DNA from: Escherichia phage vB_EcoS_VAH1
Sequence record: MK373792.1
Length of the DNA stretch: 64,000 nt
Strand: one strand, 5' to 3'
The number at the start of each line of letters is the position of its first letter. Within the stretch, counting starts at the first letter, position 1. Below are positions 1,105 through 43,384 of the stretch, piece after piece. The translations under genes were made by a program, and so were the position numbers. Under the pieces are notes generated by a model. That model worked only from the letters and a program-made list of their open reading frames with translations. It made no database searches and had not been told where the DNA came from.

Positions 1105-1179
1105 TGGCCGAGGTGACAGGATTCGAACCTGCATAAAGGAATTTAGAAGACTCCTGCCTCTCCCTTAGACTACACCCCG
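1105..1179 (-). tRNA. tRNA-Arg (anticodon UCU), CCA encoded
   Basis: Hand-folded cloverleaf: acceptor CGGGGTG/CACCTCG, D-arm with GG, anticodon stem GGAGT/ATTCC with loop CUUCUAA, T-arm GCAGG-TTCGAAT-CCTGT, discriminator G plus CCA. Confidence 0.8.
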
Positions 1180-1682: not shown

Positions 1683-1754
1683 TACCGACCGTAGGATTCG
1701 AACCTACATCTTCCACCAGTTACGGCTTGATAATACCAATTATACTAGGACGGC
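1683..1754 (-). tRNA. tRNA-like element (possible pseudo-tRNA); anticodon arm not foldable by eye
   Basis: Canonical T-arm GTAGG-TTCGAAT-CCTAC, 6 of 7 acceptor pairs (GCCGTCC/GGTCGGT), D-loop AATTGGTA, but no 5-bp anticodon stem found. Confidence 0.35.
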
Positions 1755-1992
1755 AGTGTTACTACATAAGTGATTTCCACACCCCACTATCAGTAAATTA
1801 GAGAAGAGTTTAGGGGAGAGGTTTCAGACGCCTCATTTTACACGTTCTAGCCACTAACCGGGATTGCCGCCCCCTGTGTACTAGTTTTACAACTAACCCA
1901 CCGACTCTATTCAACGAATCTTAGTGCTCGACGCATCTTACATTAAGACAAGTTCAGCGTAATCGGCTCGCTGTTCCCTAATTTATGAATAT

Positions 1993-2021
1993 ATTATACA
2001 GAATTTAAAGGCATTTAGCAA
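1993..2021 (-). promoter_or_regulatory. T5-type early sigma70 promoter (TTGCTA-N17-TATAAT) reading leftward into the tRNA region
   Basis: On the - strand: TTGCTAAATGCCTTTAAATTCTGTATAAT with AT-rich flanks; one of a repeated promoter family. Confidence 0.6.
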
Positions 2022-2029
2022 ATAAATTT

Positions 2030-2473
2030 TTAATTAAATTCGCCAGCAATCTGAGCAGCAGTACCACCATCATAACGCCCAGGAAATTCTTCCTTAATCG
2101 CTTTCATCAGCATACCTTTTGTAATTCCAGGGTTTAGCTTAACTAATTCTGCAAAGTATTTACGAATCTCAGTATCAGATAACTGAGGAGGCAGATACTC
2201 CTGCAACCACTTATTTAGAATGTATTCATACTGAGCGGACTGCAAGCTATAACTATCAAGATCTTGACCATGAAGTTTAGCTTTCATCTGGTTAATGCTT
2301 TTTAGTTGAGCTTTGAGATAAGACACAAATTGTTCAGAAGTGATGAAATCTTTATCAATACGCTGAAGATCCCCGATTATGGTCTGATAGCTTTTAGCGA
2401 CTTCTTTATCAGAACCATTAAACTTAGAATCCTGCAAAGCTCTACGCAAAACATCTAAAATATTCTCTTCCAT
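2030..2473 (-). CDS. Hypothetical early protein
   Basis: 147-aa ORF; its ATG overlaps the stop of the upstream small ORF (TAATG), suggesting translational coupling. Confidence 0.6.
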   Translation of the reverse strand: MEENILDVLRRALQDSKFNGSDKEVAKSYQTIIGDLQRIDKDFITSEQFVSYLKAQLKSINQMKAKLHGQDLDSYSLQSAQYEYILNKWLQEYLPPQLSDTEIRKYFAELVKLNPGITKGMLMKAIKEEFPGRYDGGTAAQIAGEFN

Positions 2474-2643
2474 TATTTCATTCCTAACGCTTGGTTAAAA
2501 GATTGTTCCGTCATAACTGCTGAGACTTTGGCGAAATCAAACTTTTTAGGGTTCGTAGTGATCTCAGCAACGTTAGAAGTTTTAACAGTTTTCGTAGTAC
2601 GAATACCGCGAGTGTTAACACCAATAATTACAACTGATTTCAT
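2473..2643 (-). CDS. Small hypothetical protein (~56 aa), absent from the ORF track
   Basis: ATG at 2643 preceded by GAGAGGAAG and by the promoter at 2675-2703; stop overlaps the next gene's ATG. Confidence 0.45.
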   Translation of the reverse strand: MKSVVIIGVNTRGIRTTKTVKTSNVAEITTNPKKFDFAKVSAVMTEQSFNQALGMK

Positions 2644-2674
2644 ATTTCGCTTCCTCTCATTAATTTATGGAAGT

Positions 2675-2703
2675 ATTATACGGAAATTTAAGTATTTAAG
2701 CAA
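2675..2703 (-). promoter_or_regulatory. T5-type early promoter (TTGCTT-N17-TATAAT)
   Basis: The -35 and -10 hexamers are spaced 17 nt apart on the - strand, about 30 nt upstream of the ATG at 2643. Confidence 0.55.
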
Positions 2704-2711
2704 GTAAATTT

Positions 2712-3161
2712 TTAAGTTTTAGTGACAACAGGTTTATAAAACGTATGTCCCTTAATCTTAGTTGTTTTCTTAAACTTCTTTGTCCAGTAAGGTTTATCTT
2801 TACCACTATGGAAGTATAGTGCTCCATATGTAGGATCTTGTGGTAAATCAACGTAGTATATCACTCTAGCTAAATTCTTAGCGGTTTGCCAAGCCTCATC
2901 AGTTTTATCAACTTTTGGTCTCTTAGATACCCAAGAGAACTGGTTAGACTGATATACTACTTTACAGTAGGAATCTGGGAATTTACCGGAGTTTACACGG
3001 TTTTTAGTAACGTGTGCAATCGCCGTCATTCCCTTTATGCCCTCACCACGACTTTCGAAATAGATATTTTTAGCAATGCAATCTATTTCTTTTGCATCGT
3101 GCGATGCCTGACTACTAAAGCTGAAGGTAAGGGCAGCTACTAAAAGCAAAGCTGCCTTCAT
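2712..3161 (-). CDS. Secreted cell-wall hydrolase (SleB/Hydrolase_2-like) with signal peptide
   Basis: ORF-track frame 2712..3179; likely start is the ATG at 3161 (MKAALLLVAALTFSFSSQA signal peptide, AGGAG 8 nt upstream); mature region has the FESRGEG motif typical of SleB-type hydrolases. Confidence 0.65.
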   Translation of the reverse strand: MKAALLLVAALTFSFSSQASHDAKEIDCIAKNIYFESRGEGIKGMTAIAHVTKNRVNSGKFPDSYCKVVYQSNQFSWVSKRPKVDKTDEAWQTAKNLARVIYYVDLPQDPTYGALYFHSGKDKPYWTKKFKKTTKIKGHTFYKPVVTKT

Positions 3162-3166
3162 TCTTT

Positions 3167-3484
3167 TTACTCCTGCCAATCATATTCAACACGATTGGGA
3201 TTTTCTTTATACCCTAAGTCAAGCAAATCATTACGCATATTTTGCTTAGCTACTGGGTTCGAGGTTACTAGTACCACTTTCTTTGGTCTCTGCCCAAATT
3301 CTAAGAGTAAGCGAAGAATTTGATAACCTTCCATACCATCTACAGCCAAGTCATTATCCATATAAACGAAATGGCCTGTGGTATCAGTTTTATTCAGAAA
3401 CTCTACAGCGGCTTCTGGGGTTCGAATGATAATGTCCATTCCGTGAAGATTACGCACATCATCAATCAAAATATGAAAAGTCAT
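3167..3484 (-). CDS. Stand-alone receiver (CheY-like REC)-like small protein
   Basis: 105 aa; the pattern ILIDD...YMDNDL...VVLVTSNP resembles the acidic pocket, phospho-acceptor Asp and conserved Thr of receiver domains; weak, by eye. Confidence 0.45.
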   Translation of the reverse strand: MTFHILIDDVRNLHGMDIIIRTPEAAVEFLNKTDTTGHFVYMDNDLAVDGMEGYQILRLLLEFGQRPKKVVLVTSNPVAKQNMRNDLLDLGYKENPNRVEYDWQE

Positions 3485-3514
3485 AATAGCCTCGTTTCAT
3501 CAATTTAAAAATAT

Positions 3515-3543
3515 ATTATACAGATAACTTAGTAAATTAGCAA
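3515..3543 (-). promoter_or_regulatory. T5-type early promoter (TTGCTA-N17-TATAAT)
   Basis: Consensus hexamers with 17-nt spacer on the - strand, about 30 nt upstream of the start at 3484. Confidence 0.6.
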
Positions 3544-3926
3544 ATACATTTTTAAATTGTGAAACTAGTAAACCGATAAACAGCCTAGAGGCGCCACAGG
3601 CCATATCTTACGAGCCATGTACCTTTGATCTAGGGTTTGAATCATCAACGAATACTTTGCATCTTTTAGCTTTAGAAGTTTAGAAGTTTGAGTTCTTTAA
3701 ACTTTTCAGCTTTCATACTTAAATGTTGATCTTTGAAGTTGTGTCGGTAATATCAACGACGCTTTGTTTTTACGTGTCAGATTAAGTGTCTGATGTAATA
3801 AACATAATCTCCAATAGATTATACTTTATAGTATGGTCAGCGGTCTTATTTAACCTCGTATTTCAACCGCTGCTGCGAGGTAAGATGCTTGGGCTTTCGT
3901 CTACCGATTTACTAGCTTTTAAATTA

Positions 3927-4565
3927 TTACTCTACTTCAATGAAGGTAGAGGCGTTAGACTCGGACAGAACAAAGTCAACATTTGTTGCAAAGTCCTGGT
4001 ATTCCTCGTCATGCTGCTTAATCAGCTTTTCCAGTTCCAGCGGATCAATCAAGAATGGAGTATTCTTGAGTTCCAGCAGGTTGAGCTGCATTTTAACTTC
4101 ATCTTCGGAAGTTTTCTTATCGCGGGTAGCCATGCTATCCTGCAAACGCTCATATTTAGCATCAAACTGTGCTTTCTGCGTATTAAACTTAACCGTAGCG
4201 GCATGGAACTGCTTACGCATGTTAGCCAGCAGTTGGGCTTTAAGTTCCATAGAACGCTTAGCTTCAATTGCTTCCGCAACAGTCATCTTACGAGAGCCAA
4301 TCTCAACGATTGTTTCAGCATTGCTTTTAATCAGAGCAGCTTTGATACGATCACGCTGGGACATCATATCCAGGAGAGATTGGAAATCTGCCTTAATACG
4401 AGCGGACAGATCGTCTACTTCGATTGCAGCGCCAACTACAACCTTATTTTTATCCTTACCTTCACCAACAGCGATCAGAAGCTGTTGTTCAGTAGCTTTA
4501 CGGATTTTAGCTTCCAGAGATTTGATAGTTGCCAGAGCGCGAGTTTTAGAAATACGAGTAGTCAT
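3927..4565 (-). CDS. Hypothetical coiled-coil early protein
   Basis: 212-aa ORF with AAGGAA ribosome-binding site; charged, helical composition. Confidence 0.6.
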   Translation of the reverse strand: MTTRISKTRALATIKSLEAKIRKATEQQLLIAVGEGKDKNKVVVGAAIEVDDLSARIKADFQSLLDMMSQRDRIKAALIKSNAETIVEIGSRKMTVAEAIEAKRSMELKAQLLANMRKQFHAATVKFNTQKAQFDAKYERLQDSMATRDKKTSEDEVKMQLNLLELKNTPFLIDPLELEKLIKQHDEEYQDFATNVDFVLSESNASTFIEVE

Positions 4566-4618
4566 TATTTGCTTCCTTATATGAAGTTTGAGATTTGAAT
4601 TTGTTTAAACTTGGTTTA

Positions 4619-4801
4619 TTACAGACCAATTGCCAGCAGAGTGCGCAGAACAGTATCGTTACTGTTATCAATTTTAGGATTAGCACGATTTAGCAGATCA
4701 AAGATTTTCTGGACACCTGATTGACGTTCAGCCATACGACGGATACCCAGATTACGAGTAGCTTTCTTACCATTTTTACGAACATTTTTAGATACTGGCA
4801 T
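4619..4801 (-). CDS. Small basic hypothetical protein (60 aa)
   Basis: ATG with AAAGGAAA ribosome-binding site, directly downstream of the promoter at 4842-4870; Lys/Arg-rich. Confidence 0.5.
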   Translation of the reverse strand: MPVSKNVRKNGKKATRNLGIRRMAERQSGVQKIFDLLNRANPKIDNSNDTVLRTLLAIGL

Positions 4802-4841
4802 ATTTGTTTTCCTTTTATTGTTTTCTCAAATTTATGAATAT

Positions 4842-4870
4842 ATTATACAGAATTTTGGGGCCGGAAGCAA
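4842..4870 (-). promoter_or_regulatory. T5-type early promoter (TTGCTT-N17-TATAAT)
   Basis: Consensus -35/-10 on the - strand between the genes at 4801 and 4872. Confidence 0.6.
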
Positions 4871-4871
4871 A

Positions 4872-5573
4872 TCAAATTTTCATTTTTTCGATCATAGCTG
4901 CAACACAATAGCTTTCAACTAAGGCATCAAATGCAGGATCATGCTTAACCGGATAGATCCCATAACGAATAGTGTCCATCTTCTCCATTTTAGCTATTGC
5001 CCAGCTAATACCTTCGGTCTCTAGAGCCTTATAACTGTATCCAGCTTGCATCCAGAGATTACGAAGAGATCGAACATTACCCAAATTCCAGAATTTCCAC
5101 GGAACTACCTCTTCATTGGTTCCAGCATGGAACGTGTTTGCAGAGTAGATAGTCATATCAAACTCTGGACCATTGCCATAATACAAAGCATTTTCGCCTA
5201 GAGCCAACTCCATAATATTTTGAGCCATAGAGAAGGCAGCATAGTTAGAGCCGAGCTTATTAGTACAGTGATGTTTACCGTCTTGAAAAGCAATCAGCTT
5301 TGGATTGCATTCCCTCATAGCTTCCATAATATGTAGAGCTGATGGACTATTTTTAGCTTGATCCATCCAGAATGCTAGAGTAGATGCCGTAACTTTAGCT
5401 CCAGAATTAAGCTGATCTTGTACATCCAAAATAACAAACACTAGACCAGGATCTTTATCAATTCCGTGCATAGCCACAAAAGCGAAAGAAGGCATTACGA
5501 TATGAGTAGTACCACAATCTCCTGGAGTTCCTAAAGATTCAATATCTAGCATACCAAATGGTTTTACTTTCAT
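4872..5573 (-). CDS. DEDDh-type 3'-5' exonuclease-like protein
   Basis: 233 aa; Exo I-like DIESLG near the N-terminus and Exo III-like HDPAFDA near the C-terminus; AAAGGA ribosome-binding site. Confidence 0.5.
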   Translation of the reverse strand: MKVKPFGMLDIESLGTPGDCGTTHIVMPSFAFVAMHGIDKDPGLVFVILDVQDQLNSGAKVTASTLAFWMDQAKNSPSALHIMEAMRECNPKLIAFQDGKHHCTNKLGSNYAAFSMAQNIMELALGENALYYGNGPEFDMTIYSANTFHAGTNEEVVPWKFWNLGNVRSLRNLWMQAGYSYKALETEGISWAIAKMEKMDTIRYGIYPVKHDPAFDALVESYCVAAMIEKMKI

Positions 5574-5601
5574 AACTTATCCTTTATTGCGTAGAAAACT
5601 A

Positions 5602-5838
5602 TTAAAGAGCTGTCTCTTTAATAGACTCCCACTTCTTGGGGTCTTTAAAACCAGGAAGCATATCCTCACTGACATCCCAGTTCTCTTCCATAGAGAAGTC
5701 AGGCCATTCATTCCAGCTACCTTCCAATTCTTCATAACAGGTATCCATTACCTCATGACTAGAAAGTCGTGTATAATCTCTAGCGGACTTATGAGTGCTA
5801 GCACGGTTAAAATCATTCTTTGCTACAAAATTACGCAT
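5602..5838 (-). CDS. Hypothetical acidic small protein
   Basis: 78-aa ORF with GGAGAAACT ribosome-binding site; Trp/Glu/Asp-rich. Confidence 0.5.
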   Translation of the reverse strand: MRNFVAKNDFNRASTHKSARDYTRLSSHEVMDTCYEELEGSWNEWPDFSMEENWDVSEDMLPGFKDPKKWESIKETAL

Positions 5839-5852
5839 AGTTTCTCCAAACT

Positions 5853-5874
5853 AAGAGGGGCTTTCGCCCCTCTT
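5853..5874 (-). other. Intergenic GC-rich hairpin (attenuator or RNA-processing site) between two early genes
   Basis: Stem AAGAGGGGC/GCCCCTCTT with TTTC loop; no strong U-run, immediately followed by the ribosome-binding site of the next gene. Confidence 0.4.
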
Positions 5875-5879
5875 ATCTA

Positions 5880-6395
5880 TTACTTCGCTTTACATTTACG
5901 AGCTGGTTTAGCAGATTTATGAGCAGAATCGCCCGTGAATTTAATCCCTACACCGTAGCACAGAGCACGAACGTTATCTTTGCTATACTCTACACCGAAG
6001 ATATTTGGCTTAACAGAACCAAACTGTCCACGAGCATCACGCAGTACATCTGCCGTTGGTTTACGCTTCTGGTTAACTGCTTTCTCATAATCTTTCATGG
6101 CCATGCCATTACGAGAGAACAATTCAGCTCCAGCATTGAAACTCAGTGTTACTGGAACAGATTTGTGACCATAACCCTGTACATAGGTCACAAGGCGGGC
6201 TACAGAACGAGTAGCATTCTTAGCCTTCGGCTTTTGACGAATCGGAGCCGGACGATTCAGTGCCTGTGCAGCTTGAGCATCAGTAGGATGCTTGCGCAGG
6301 TGGCGTTCCAGACGAGCTTTGCGGTTAGCCTCAGTCTGCGGGAAAGTTTTAACTGTAGTAGCTGCTTGAGTTTTTGCGTTTTTCTGCTTAGCCAT
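5880..6395 (-). CDS. Hypothetical basic protein
   Basis: 171-aa ORF rich in Lys/Arg/Ala; preferred-codon usage; downstream of the promoter at 6434-6462. Confidence 0.55.
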   Translation of the reverse strand: MAKQKNAKTQAATTVKTFPQTEANRKARLERHLRKHPTDAQAAQALNRPAPIRQKPKAKNATRSVARLVTYVQGYGHKSVPVTLSFNAGAELFSRNGMAMKDYEKAVNQKRKPTADVLRDARGQFGSVKPNIFGVEYSKDNVRALCYGVGIKFTGDSAHKSAKPARKCKAK

Positions 6396-7591: not shown

Positions 7592-7616
7592 TGTATACCT
7601 CCAATTTATAAAATAT

Positions 7617-7645
7617 ATTATAGTTAAATTTCACTAAATAAGCAA
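7617..7645 (-). promoter_or_regulatory. T5-type early promoter (TTGCTT-N17-TATAAT)
   Basis: Consensus hexamers on the - strand. Confidence 0.55.
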
Positions 7646-13741: not shown

Positions 13742-13808
13742 TCCTATAGTGTACTTCGCTTCTAACAGAGGATCAACAAAGAGATCTTGTTTATCAACTT
13801 ACAAATAT

Positions 13809-13837
13809 ATTATAACAAGGTTTACAGCAAAAAGCAA
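13809..13837 (-). promoter_or_regulatory. T5-type early promoter (TTGCTT-N17-TATAAT) for phoH
   Basis: Consensus hexamers on the - strand in an AT-rich divergent promoter region. Confidence 0.55.
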
Positions 13838-32515: not shown

Positions 32516-32544
32516 TTGCTATTATCCCAATATTTTGATATAAT
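32516..32544 (+). promoter_or_regulatory. Sigma70 promoter (TTGCTA-N17-TATAAT) upstream of the DNA polymerase gene
   Basis: Consensus hexamers about 60 nt upstream of the pol start. Confidence 0.6.
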
Positions 32545-32605
32545 ATATTGGTAAGTTAGAGAAGAAACACTGAAGTTATACTTACTTACCAAGAGGAGAT
32601 TAAAT

Positions 32606-42066: not shown

Positions 42067-42941
42067 TGAGTAAATCCTGGGGAAAATTTATTGAAGAAGA
42101 GGAAGCTGAAATGGCTTCTCGTCGTAACCTAATGATTGTCGATGGAACTAACTTAGGCTTTCGCTTCAAACATAACAATAGTAAAAAACCATTTGCCTCA
42201 AGTTATGTTTCCACTATTCAGTCTCTAGCAAAATCTTATTCTGCTAGAACTACAATAGTTTTAGGGGATAAAGGGAAGTCTGCATTCCGCTTAGAGCATC
42301 TCCCTGAGTATAAAGGGAATCGAGATGAGAAATACTCGCAGCGTACGGAAGAGGAGAAAGCGCTAGATGAGCAGTTCTTCGAGTATTTGAAAGATGCTTT
42401 CGAGCTGTGCGAAACCACATTCCCAACATTCACTATTCGTGGTGTAGAAGCAGATGATATGGCAGCTTATATTGTTAAGCTCATTGGTCATCTTTATGAT
42501 CACGTTTGGTTGATCTCTACTGATGGTGACTGGGATACTTTATTAACAGATAAAGTTTCTCGTTTCTCTTTCACAACACGTCGTGAATACCATCTTCGTG
42601 ATATGTATGAGCATCATAATGTTGACGATGTAGAGCAGTTTATCTCTCTAAAAGCAATTATGGGTGATTTAGGGGATAATATCCGTGGTGTTGAAGGTAT
42701 TGGGGCAAAACGCGGGTATAACATTATTCGTGAATTCGGTAACGTTCTGGATATTATTGATCAGCTTCCACTGCCTGGAAAACAGAAATATATACAGAAT
42801 TTAAATGCTTCGGAAGAATTGCTTTACCGAAACCTAATTCTGGTTGATTTACCTACCTACTGTGTGGATGCTATTGCTGCTGTAGGTCAAGACGTATTAG
42901 ATAAGTTTACAAAAGATATTTTGGAGATTGCAGAACAATGA
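42066..42941 (+). CDS. Flap endonuclease / 5'-3' exonuclease (T5 D15-type)
   Basis: 291 aa; the sequence closely matches my recollection of the T5 5'-exonuclease (MSKSWGKFIEEEEAEMASRRNLMIVDGTNLGFRF...). Confidence 0.9.
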   Translation: MSKSWGKFIEEEEAEMASRRNLMIVDGTNLGFRFKHNNSKKPFASSYVSTIQSLAKSYSARTTIVLGDKGKSAFRLEHLPEYKGNRDEKYSQRTEEEKALDEQFFEYLKDAFELCETTFPTFTIRGVEADDMAAYIVKLIGHLYDHVWLISTDGDWDTLLTDKVSRFSFTTRREYHLRDMYEHHNVDDVEQFISLKAIMGDLGDNIRGVEGIGAKRGYNIIREFGNVLDIIDQLPLPGKQKYIQNLNASEELLYRNLILVDLPTYCVDAIAAVGQDVLDKFTKDILEIAEQ

Positions 42942-43384
42942 TTAAAATTAAGTTAACTCATCCAGATTGTATGCCTAAGATTGGCTCTGAAGATGCCGCA
43001 GGTATGGATCTGCGAGCATTTTTTGGTACTAATCCTGCAGCGGATTTACGTGCTATTGCACCAGGCAAATCCCTAATGATTGACACCGGTGTCGCGGTAG
43101 AAATTCCACGAGGTTGGTTCGGTTTGGTGGTTCCGCGTAGTTCTTTAGGTAAGCGCCATCTGATGATTGCAAATACCGCAGGAGTGATCGACTCAGACTA
43201 TCGTGGGACTATTAAGATGAACCTCTATAACTACGGTTCTGAAATTCAAACTCTGGAGAATTTTGAAAGACTTTGTCAGCTAGTAGTAGTACCACACTAT
43301 TCAACTCATAATTTTGAAATCGTTGACGAACTAGAGGAGACTATTCGTGGAGAAGGTGGATTTGGAAGCTCAGGAAGCAAGTAA
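42938..43384 (+). CDS. dut: dUTPase
   Basis: 148 aa; dUTPase motifs AGMDLRA, RSSLG, GVIDSDYRG and the C-terminal RGEGGFGSSG. Confidence 0.9.
   Translation: MIKIKLTHPDCMPKIGSEDAAGMDLRAFFGTNPAADLRAIAPGKSLMIDTGVAVEIPRGWFGLVVPRSSLGKRHLMIANTAGVIDSDYRGTIKMNLYNYGSEIQTLENFERLCQLVVVPHYSTHNFEIVDELEETIRGEGGFGSSGSK

Follow-up and report, generated by a model that had tools for sequence, protein, structure and literature searches.

Does a receiver-like protein encoded next to a secreted cell-wall hydrolase indicate that a phage interferes with host two-component signalling, and do two such genes work together at all? The question is raised by positions 2712–3484 of a 64,000-nt stretch of Escherichia phage vB_EcoS_VAH1 (MK373792.1; the whole stretch is hereafter called the window), where a 105-amino-acid (aa) protein of the cREC family and a SleB-like hydrolase are encoded one after the other on the minus strand. 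A sequence-only reading had proposed that the first protein could titrate or mimic host signalling and that the second could remodel the envelope or exclude superinfecting phages. The pair is ordinary and already known, and it is not a sign of interference with two-component signalling: the locus is annotated in T5 and hundreds of its relatives, and both domains are filed in Pfam and PHROGs. The adjacency of the two genes is synteny within T5's subfamily, Markadamsvirinae. The reading to which we lean is that the genes share an early promoter, are neighbours by lineage, and encode a phosphate-handling enzyme and an exported auxiliary hydrolase. As it stands the locus matters little, the 'second endolysin' having been remarked on in several genome papers.

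Gene organization and early promoter

The window comes from a T5-like phage. Over positions 2000–4700 it shares 99.0% identity with Phage NBSal005, and 442 deposited records of phages reach 80% or more over this region; T5-like phages of Salmonella or Escherichia account for nearly all of these. The window begins near T5 coordinate 39.7 kb, and the late structural genes run from about 43.6 kb of the window onward, some 40 kb from the pair. The two genes are homologs of T5.084 (42745–43062) and T5.083 (42290–42739; T5 record NC_005859). In T5 this pair belongs to the early region, with nucleotide-metabolism genes on one side and the tRNA/RNAX block on the other. T5 has the same two genes in the same order, 5 nt apart, and the same promoters before and after them (the latter P-D/E 33); there is no substantive difference, and the window represents another isolate of this locus. 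Both proteins are 99–100% identical to their orthologs in deposited T5-like phages, and orthologs are present in more than 400 sequenced T5-like phages.

The gene for the 105-aa protein, a cytoplasmic product, occupies 3167..3484 on the minus strand (ATG to TAA), and the hydrolase gene occupies 2712..3161 on the same strand. The stop codon of the first (TAA, 3169..3167) and the start codon of the second (ATG, from 3161) are separated by exactly 5 nt (3166..3162), as the sequence-only reading had it. A TTG at 3179, with which the listed open reading frame (ORF) begins, was discarded as the start codon on the basis of the Shine-Dalgarno position and the N termini of homologs. The ATG at 3161 was taken instead, giving a protein of 149 aa, because the Shine-Dalgarno sequence AGGAG (3170..3174, minus strand), located in the last codons of the upstream gene, lies 8 nt before it and every homolog begins with MKAALLL.

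An early-type promoter ahead of the pair, also claimed from the sequence, was borne out by three kinds of evidence: motif counts, footprinting and the T5 annotation. The site (3510..3543, minus strand) is a T5 early-class sigma-70 promoter of the two-gene operon and consists of TTGCTA (-35), a 17-nt spacer and TATAAT (-10) at 3543..3515, followed by the discriminator ATATT to 3510. It matches the consensus at 10 of 12 positions. ATATT is found in the discriminator of all known T5 early promoters (Klimuk et al., PMC7472727). A generic sigma-70 scan was dropped as evidence, since it returned 10 sites against 13.3 expected and was thus not above chance; the promoter was judged instead by a test for the T5 early-class motif and by phylogenetic footprinting. 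Allowing up to 2 mismatches, TTGCT-N18-TATAATATATT occurred at 12 sites in the window (0.21 expected), all within 1988–32549 and oriented with the local genes, with none in the late region. The site at 3543..3510 is a zero-mismatch member of this class. Among T5-like phages both hexamers and ATATT are invariant and the 17-nt spacer is variable, which is the footprint of a working promoter, and the T5 record annotates a promoter at the equivalent position (43067–43141). A terminator scan returned no terminator-like site between the two genes or after the hydrolase gene. A search for time-resolved T5 expression data found none; a single 20-min Bas33 time point yielded nothing retrievable for either gene.

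Other sites of the class include 2021..1988, 4870..4837, 7645..7612 and 13837..13804 (minus strand) and 32516–32549 (plus strand), and together the sites provide a ready map of the early transcription units in the window. The promoter core is also flanked by a 17-nt inverted repeat, CAATTTAAAAATNTATT (arms 3501–3517 and 3543–3559, 94% complementary). Exact copies of the repeat occur at this place only in the window, and among T5-like phages the promoter flanks are conserved, with a variable spacer between them. It could be a putative operator for a dimeric regulator, or merely the A/T-rich flanks of the promoter.

The SleB-like hydrolase and the lysis functions of T5

The hydrolase matched Hydrolase_2 (PF07486) at 89 bits against a cutoff of 27 (E 3.4e-25; Pfam) and is labeled 'endolysin' by PHROG and RefSeq. 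A sequence search of the PDB returned SleB catalytic domains only (best 4f55, E 3.6e-8). The AlphaFold2 (AF2) model (predicted local distance difference test (pLDDT) 91.0) had as its sole Foldseek matches at E ≤ 0.001 the SleB catalytic-domain chains 4f55, 4fet_A and 4fet_B, with template modeling (TM) scores of 0.62–0.79. The motif YFESRGE aligned on YGESRGE of Bacillus cereus SleB, which places the catalytic Glu at E36. Against TIGR02869, the equivalog of spore SleB, the protein scored 50.4 bits (cutoff 236.5), and the match covered the C-terminal catalytic part only (profile positions 79–201). In 35 diverse homologs C28, Y34, E36, G44, R55, C66, V68, V69, Q74, W77, H139 and F141 were invariant.

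Codons 1–19 (3105..3161, minus strand) encode MKAALLLVAALTFSFSSQA, which is predicted to act as a Sec signal peptide and to be cut between SQA and SHD; the mature SleB/CwlJ-type catalytic domain (Hydrolase_2) and the stop codon occupy 2712..3104 (minus strand; assigned by Pfam, PDB and AF2/Foldseek). The peptide, assessed by heuristic features and by comparison with homologs, has an N-terminal Lys, a 13-residue hydrophobic core (Kyte-Doolittle (KD) mean 2.69) and small residues at -3 and -1. Nearly all full-length homologs retain a basic N terminus, a hydrophobic core and small residues at -3/-1 (SQA, SHA, AYA, VQA, VVA and others) despite sequence drift. The comparative evidence for a cleaved Sec signal peptide is thus strong, and the sequence-only claim of a secreted SleB-like hydrolase in the early region agrees with the Pfam match, the fold and E36 as well. 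The pair C28/C66 is invariant in the homologs and absent from Bacillus SleB, and suggests a disulfide formed in the periplasm.

Relative to the Bacillus SleB lytic transglycosylase (4F55, 4FET), the phage protein has the same fold and the same ESRGE catalytic motif. It lacks the N-terminal peptidoglycan-binding domain, has the Cys pair and a predicted Sec signal peptide of the Gram-negative type, and its substrate, unlike that of SleB, cannot be muramic-lactam cortex. T5-like, rV5-like and Pakpunavirus phages are among the 1,273 phage records in which a homolog was found. Elsewhere they stand amid early or nucleotide-metabolism genes (ThyX, Metallophos, dGTP_diPhyd_N), with one case in a structural module. 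A close parallel to the arrangement here is that of the rV5-like Vequintavirinae (CB7_83, CR3_087, PVP-SE1, BME3), in which a small secreted Hydrolase_2 protein likewise forms a second muralytic enzyme away from the structural genes; these share only about 35–40% identity with the present hydrolase, and in CB7 a candidate holin overlaps the hydrolase gene, whereas none was seen at this locus. A signal-peptide-bearing SleB-like 'second endolysin' has been described in the replication module of rV5-like phages (PMC7344957, PMC12210895), and one such homolog was toxic when expressed in E. coli (data not shown in PMC7344957). A second endolysin in the early region of T5-like phages has also been noted (PMC3326045, PMC11180984).

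The hydrolase is not the endolysin of the lysis cassette. In T5, lys (T5.040) and holin C1 (T5.041) lie at 19.9–21.0 kb and the spanins at 22.5–23.2 kb, all in the early region and about 22 kb from T5.083, which is flanked by the cREC gene and a DUF7616 gene. That the hydrolase is not beside the late structural genes is correct, given the distance of about 40 kb, but this position is not distinctive because lys, holin and spanins of T5 lie in the early region too. Published virion proteomics of AKFV33 covered four major bands and was uninformative for either protein. In a dCas13d knock-down screen of T5, T5.083 scored -3.97 (p 0.73) and T5.084 scored -4.20 (p 0.88), both 'Not Fit' (PMC11879866 supplement), while holin C1 is among the 17 'Fit' genes (PMC11879866). 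A supplementary note of the same CRISPRi-ART study names T5.084 and T5.090 'Fit', and its own 17-gene list and table give 'Not Fit' (PMC11879866). Following the published screen, both genes were taken to be dispensable in the laboratory.

The best placed of the alternatives, although an unlikely one, is that the hydrolase is a true second endolysin: Sec would export it, low activity, a membrane tether or the redox state would keep it inactive, and it would contribute to lysis timing or host range, mattering on hosts or under conditions in which the L-Ala-D-Glu peptidase endolysin works poorly. The PHROG and RefSeq labels are consistent with this, as are the discussion of the rV5-like proteins, one of them toxic, as lysis enzymes (PMC7344957, PMC12210895) and the 'multiple endolysins' that several authors have noted in T5-like Salmonella phages (PMC11180984). 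Against it are the canonical cassette elsewhere with no holin or spanin nearby, the early-class rather than late promoter, the 'Not Fit' score of T5.083 beside the 'Fit' score of holin C1 (PMC11879866), and the 13-residue core and conserved cleavage site, which suggest a cleaved signal peptide and not a signal-arrest-release (SAR) anchor. The reading we prefer is that of a Sec-exported, disulfide-stabilized SleB-type muramidase or lytic transglycosylase that would reach the periplasm without a holin, cut the glycan strands of host peptidoglycan from early infection onward, and serve as an auxiliary wall-weakening or remodeling enzyme separate from lys, holin and spanins. For envelope remodeling or superinfection exclusion, as first suggested, the data weigh neither for nor against.

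The 105-aa protein as a member of the cREC family

The 105-aa protein matched cREC_REC (PF20274) at 56.8 bits against a cutoff of 27 (E 3.8e-15, profile positions 2–86 of 88; Pfam), and Response_reg (PF00072) remained below threshold (12.5 bits, cutoff 30.2, E 0.17). PHROGs assigns it to phrog_1479, function unknown. Word-indexed searches returned 61 relatives, all of them PF20274, and HMMER over 1.84 billion cluster representatives returned 431 cREC sequences at E ≤ 0.001, almost all stand-alone proteins of about 100 aa; the few longer representatives were HNH-endonuclease read-throughs or unannotated extensions, and no other fusions were seen. Defence-system and NCBIfam libraries gave no cREC matches. 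Searched against the PDB, the cREC profile detected response regulators only at E ~1. Its top matches there, TAL effectors at E 1e-16, were rejected as an artefact in which about 16 weak repeat matches, each at E >100, were summed. Profile positions 53–84 (alignment A2) contain P-x-x-V-V-L-V-T-S-N-P-V-A, which resembles the TAL-effector repeat core P-x-Q-V-V-A-I-A-S-N and is a trap for automated annotation.

The AF2 model (pLDDT 93.3) has a flavodoxin-like receiver fold with the topology β1-loop-β2-α-β3-α-β4-α-β5-β. According to DSSP, a loop replaces α1 (residues 8–17) and a short β-hairpin replaces α5, and the full (βα)5 topology is absent. In 41 sequences, with identity down to about 33%, L6, D8, R11, D43, D45, G53, P67, V73 and N76 were invariant, and D9, D17, R21, Y41 and Y92 were conserved in at least 90%. 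Alignment with a CheY profile (hhalign) was weak (E 0.006), in a register that agrees with the predicted strand ends: D43 falls on CheY D57, D45 on N59, T74 on T87, N76 on E89, Y92 on Y106 and N95 on K109. The CheY pocket residues D12, D13, D57 and T87 thus correspond to D8, D9, D43 and T74 (Ser or Thr in the cREC family), and the acidic pattern that had first suggested a CheY-like receiver is real. The position of K109 holds Asn (N95) or is variable, and K93, inside β5, is not conserved (K/Q/T/V). In short, profile search and structure prediction agree on a receiver fold with an intact acidic pocket, but place the protein in cREC and not in PF00072. Compared with CheY/PF00072 receivers it lacks α1, α5, K109, a kinase and an output domain, and has the extra invariants R11, D45 and N76.

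The family has been defined as a divergent receiver that is never part of a histidine-kinase system (Iyer, Anantharaman, Krishnan, Burroughs and Aravind 2021, PMC7824862). It was reported in linkage with NAD+/ADP-ribose enzymes, RNA ligases and WYL domains and with genes for cyclic-nucleotide sensing, and an activity that opens cyclic phosphates, a phosphoesterase, was predicted (PMC7824862). A literature search found no further mention of cREC, and searches for T5.083 or T5.084 by name returned nothing in main texts. The present protein resembles the published family in passing the Pfam threshold, in keeping the active-site Asp of receivers, and in being stand-alone, phage-borne and free of a kinase partner. 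It differs in its context: the published NAD+/ADP-ribose, RNA-ligase and WYL contexts are absent, the neighbours are the SleB-like hydrolase and the DUF7616 and YqeY-like proteins, and tRNA genes lie 1.4–2 kb away.

The family is phage-restricted as far as the searches reached. Pattern scans of one genome from each of 185,579 prokaryotic species returned no relative in the first pass and a single one in the second, on a 3.3-kb contig of a metagenome-assembled genome (MAG); the patterns were narrow, so that absence is indicative only. When the 760 neighbour ORFs of 68 cREC locus groups were clustered de novo, no family was present in more than 4 groups. A Pfam scan of the 150 nearest neighbour proteins of these groups, a sample biased toward the T5.084-like subfamily, was mostly empty, and no kinase domain was found among the top 25 of the 41 matched families. 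A Pfam scan of the proteins of the window likewise showed no histidine kinase or histidine phosphotransfer (Hpt) partner. The scattered neighbours included Ribosomal_L12-like proteins (two locus groups), PTH2, L33, Metallophos and SprT-like proteins. Translation-type neighbours were encoded, among other places, at L007:5306–5659, L068:5285–5677 and L039:6300–6659. In Vibrio phage phi-pp2 the cREC gene lies about 2 kb from a tRNA cluster, and in T5 a gene for a YqeY/GatB-like protein and tRNA genes come after the operon. These observations amount to a weak translation/tRNA theme around cREC.

In the reading preferred here, the 105-aa protein would be a stripped-down receiver whose acidic pocket (D8/D9/D43) binds Mg2+ and phosphate and in which T74/Y92 and R11, D45 and N76 have been kept. 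The invariance of the pocket argues for chemistry at D43, and the protein is most likely a stand-alone phosphate-handling enzyme with an aspartyl-phosphate intermediate at this residue. In phosphatases of the haloacid dehalogenase (HAD) superfamily, motif I is DxD and its second Asp acts as the acid/base. By our own analogy with these enzymes, the invariant D45, two residues past the nucleophile D43, would serve as acid/base and turn the slow self-dephosphorylation of receivers into turnover, which would match the published phosphoesterase prediction. Its substrate would probably be an RNA end or a small molecule that carries a phosphate or cyclic phosphate, and the role would be in counter-defence or repair and not that of a decoy for host histidine kinases.

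A bolder version of this, which we regard as distinctly unlikely, makes cREC a new class of receiver-fold counter-defence or RNA-repair enzyme, an aspartyl-phosphate-forming phosphodiesterase that would destroy a cyclic-phosphate immune signal or open the 2',3'-cyclic-phosphate tRNA ends left by host anticodon nucleases. It would suit the place of the cREC gene at the edge of the tRNA clusters in T5 and KVP40-like phages and the translation-related neighbours found elsewhere (L12-like, PTH2, YqeY-like). A variant in which the enzyme works with the exported transglycosylase on cell-wall metabolites is less likely. Also doubtful, and somewhat more so, is a pseudo-receiver without catalysis, which would bind a partner from host or phage, or take up a nucleotide ligand as a sponge, with a pocket that serves only to hold a ligand or metal. 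Its small size, its stand-alone occurrence, the missing Lys and the highly variable neighbourhoods would be typical of phage anti-host binders, but the three to four acidic residues and R11 and N76 are invariant at the phosphorylation site down to about 33% identity, which is more typical of chemistry.

Conservation of the adjacency

Custom hidden Markov models (HMMs) were scanned over 45 viral and 80 metagenomic cREC loci and 7 hydrolase loci. Throughout the Markadamsvirinae loci examined (27 IMG/VR loci, T5, NBSal005 and Pantoea phage AAS21) the hydrolase gene came directly after the cREC gene; in one locus of this subfamily about 470 bp of additional sequence lies between the two. In two other genera of the same family the arrangement was broken. 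Pectobacterium phage My1 (Myunavirus) has five genes between cREC and hydrolase, and in Klebsiella phage Sugarland (Sugarlandvirus) the 3 kb around the hydrolase gene contain no cREC. Five further hydrolase loci also lacked cREC. In the metagenomic cREC loci (402 kb), none of the 80 was adjacent to Hydrolase_2, and in one of the 80 a match lay within 5 kb (4.6 kb off). Among phage records, 1,273 contained the hydrolase and 493 contained cREC, with an overlap formed essentially by T5-like phages only.

The only viral cREC locus with Hydrolase_2 among the non-T5-like loci examined was on contig IMGVR_UViG_3300038652_000127 (L046). There, at 5468–6213, Hydrolase_2 is followed 6 nt later by a frameshifted cREC gene, in reversed order with respect to T5. 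The contig belongs to an unrelated T4-like myovirus (PolB, sheath stabilizer), and its hydrolase has no signal peptide. Wall hydrolases were not enriched among the neighbours of the 68 cREC locus groups: two were found (Hydrolase_2 and SLT), compared with about 4 expected by a rough estimate of our own, in which roughly 1.5 of every 100 phage genes are muralytic and each locus has four neighbours. We rejected a link of cREC with Hydrolase_2 across the whole family, apart from T5's subfamily and L046. The case for a functional link that the 5-nt spacing had been taken to imply is weak, since conservation of the adjacency stops at T5's subfamily, and with a single independent recurrence a link between the two functions is possible but unlikely.

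The corresponding explanation, that the two genes form a functional unit in which the cytoplasmic cREC enzyme acts on a phosphorylated cell-wall precursor or recycling intermediate or controls the exported hydrolase, and the pair jointly reprograms peptidoglycan metabolism, is improbable. The 5-nt spacing, the single promoter, the Shine-Dalgarno sequence inside the upstream gene and the strict adjacency within Markadamsvirinae count for it, and the reversed pair of L046 and one cREC locus beside an SLT transglycosylase speak for it too. They are outweighed by the separation of the genes in My1, the Sugarland hydrolase with no cREC nearby, the absence of adjacency in the 80 metagenomic loci, the hydrolase homologs that occur elsewhere without cREC, the unequal record counts shared essentially by T5-like phages only, the number of wall hydrolases near the 68 locus groups, which is about that expected by chance, and, on L046 itself, the missing signal peptide and the frameshift.

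Joint reading of the two genes

Taken together, the results favour a T5-type early promoter that would transcribe two accessory genes, which would be neighbours through lineage history and not through shared work, one encoding the putative cREC phosphate enzyme and the other the predicted exported hydrolase. Several points weigh against this reading. The adjacency on L046 is a possible hint at a functional link. The phosphoesterase activity is a published prediction and the HAD-like role of D45 is an inference of our own, and the conserved T74/Y92 (CheY T87/Y106) would also fit a phospho-switch instead of an enzyme. The NAD+/ADP-ribose and RNA-ligase families were absent at this locus and from the top 25 of the 41 Pfam families matched by the 150 neighbours. 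The signal peptide was recognized by heuristics only, and early timing was deduced from promoter class and map position. The 'Not Fit' scores come from one host (DH10B) and are contradicted by one sentence of the supplement (PMC11879866). Finally, an active muramidase exported early should harm the infected cell, so that its activity would need control; early holin-independent export, if true, raises the question of how the phage avoids premature lysis.

In receivers generally, α1 docks onto the dimerization and histidine phosphotransfer (DHp) helices of the kinase and is the main docking element for histidine kinases. Least probable of all is the proposal with which the sequence-only reading began, that the protein serves host two-component systems as a decoy or a sink, takes phosphate from histidine kinases or acetyl phosphate and so rewires host signalling early in infection: the receiver fold, the intact D-D...D pocket, the conserved Thr/Tyr switch residues and early expression by promoter class would suit it, but the loss of α1, α5 and the Lys argues against kinase mimicry, PF00072 is below threshold (12.5 against 30.2 bits), the family is confined to phages and its listed neighbours (top 25 of 41 Pfam families) include neither a kinase nor an Hpt partner, its describers saw no tie to histidine kinases (PMC7824862), and a fitness effect in E. 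coli was absent (PMC11879866).

What the locus offers is a derivative of the receiver domain, confined to phages, whose active-site pocket is conserved. With a non-essential gene, a strong early promoter and genome-editing tools, T5 is a tractable model in which to ask whether enzymes have evolved from receiver folds in the conflict between phages and their hosts.

Neighbouring genes and other features

Just past the hydrolase stop codon, the next promoter (TTGCTT-17-TATAAT, 2675..2703, minus strand; P-D/E 33 of T5) drives the genes for a 56-aa DUF7616 protein (2473–2643, minus strand) and a YqeY-like protein (2030–2473, minus strand). The two ORFs abut (ATG at 2473, stop at 2473–2475). The YqeY-like protein is just below the threshold of PF09424 and is called 'tRNA amidotransferase' in databases. 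Further along are tRNA-Arg(TCT) (1105–1179, minus strand) and, about 500 nt away, a second tRNA-like element (1683–1754, minus strand), which passes the Rfam tRNA threshold (35.5 bits) with no ARAGORN call and lies in the region equivalent to the stable 'RNAX' of T5.

Upstream of the operon, a 440-nt non-coding gap (3485–3926) contains another TATAAT with GGAG and a mini-ORF of 7 codons after it (about 3826–3790, minus strand), a short tandem TTTAGAAG repeat near 3670–3690 and a conserved GGCGCC near 3590 that resembles the T5 nick consensus. Beyond the gap, the T5.085 homolog (3927–4565, minus strand) is labeled 'tail fiber protein' by PHROG and RefSeq, yet it lies in the early region behind early-type promoters. 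It has no Pfam match above threshold (best E 0.068), and the label looks like annotation carry-over.

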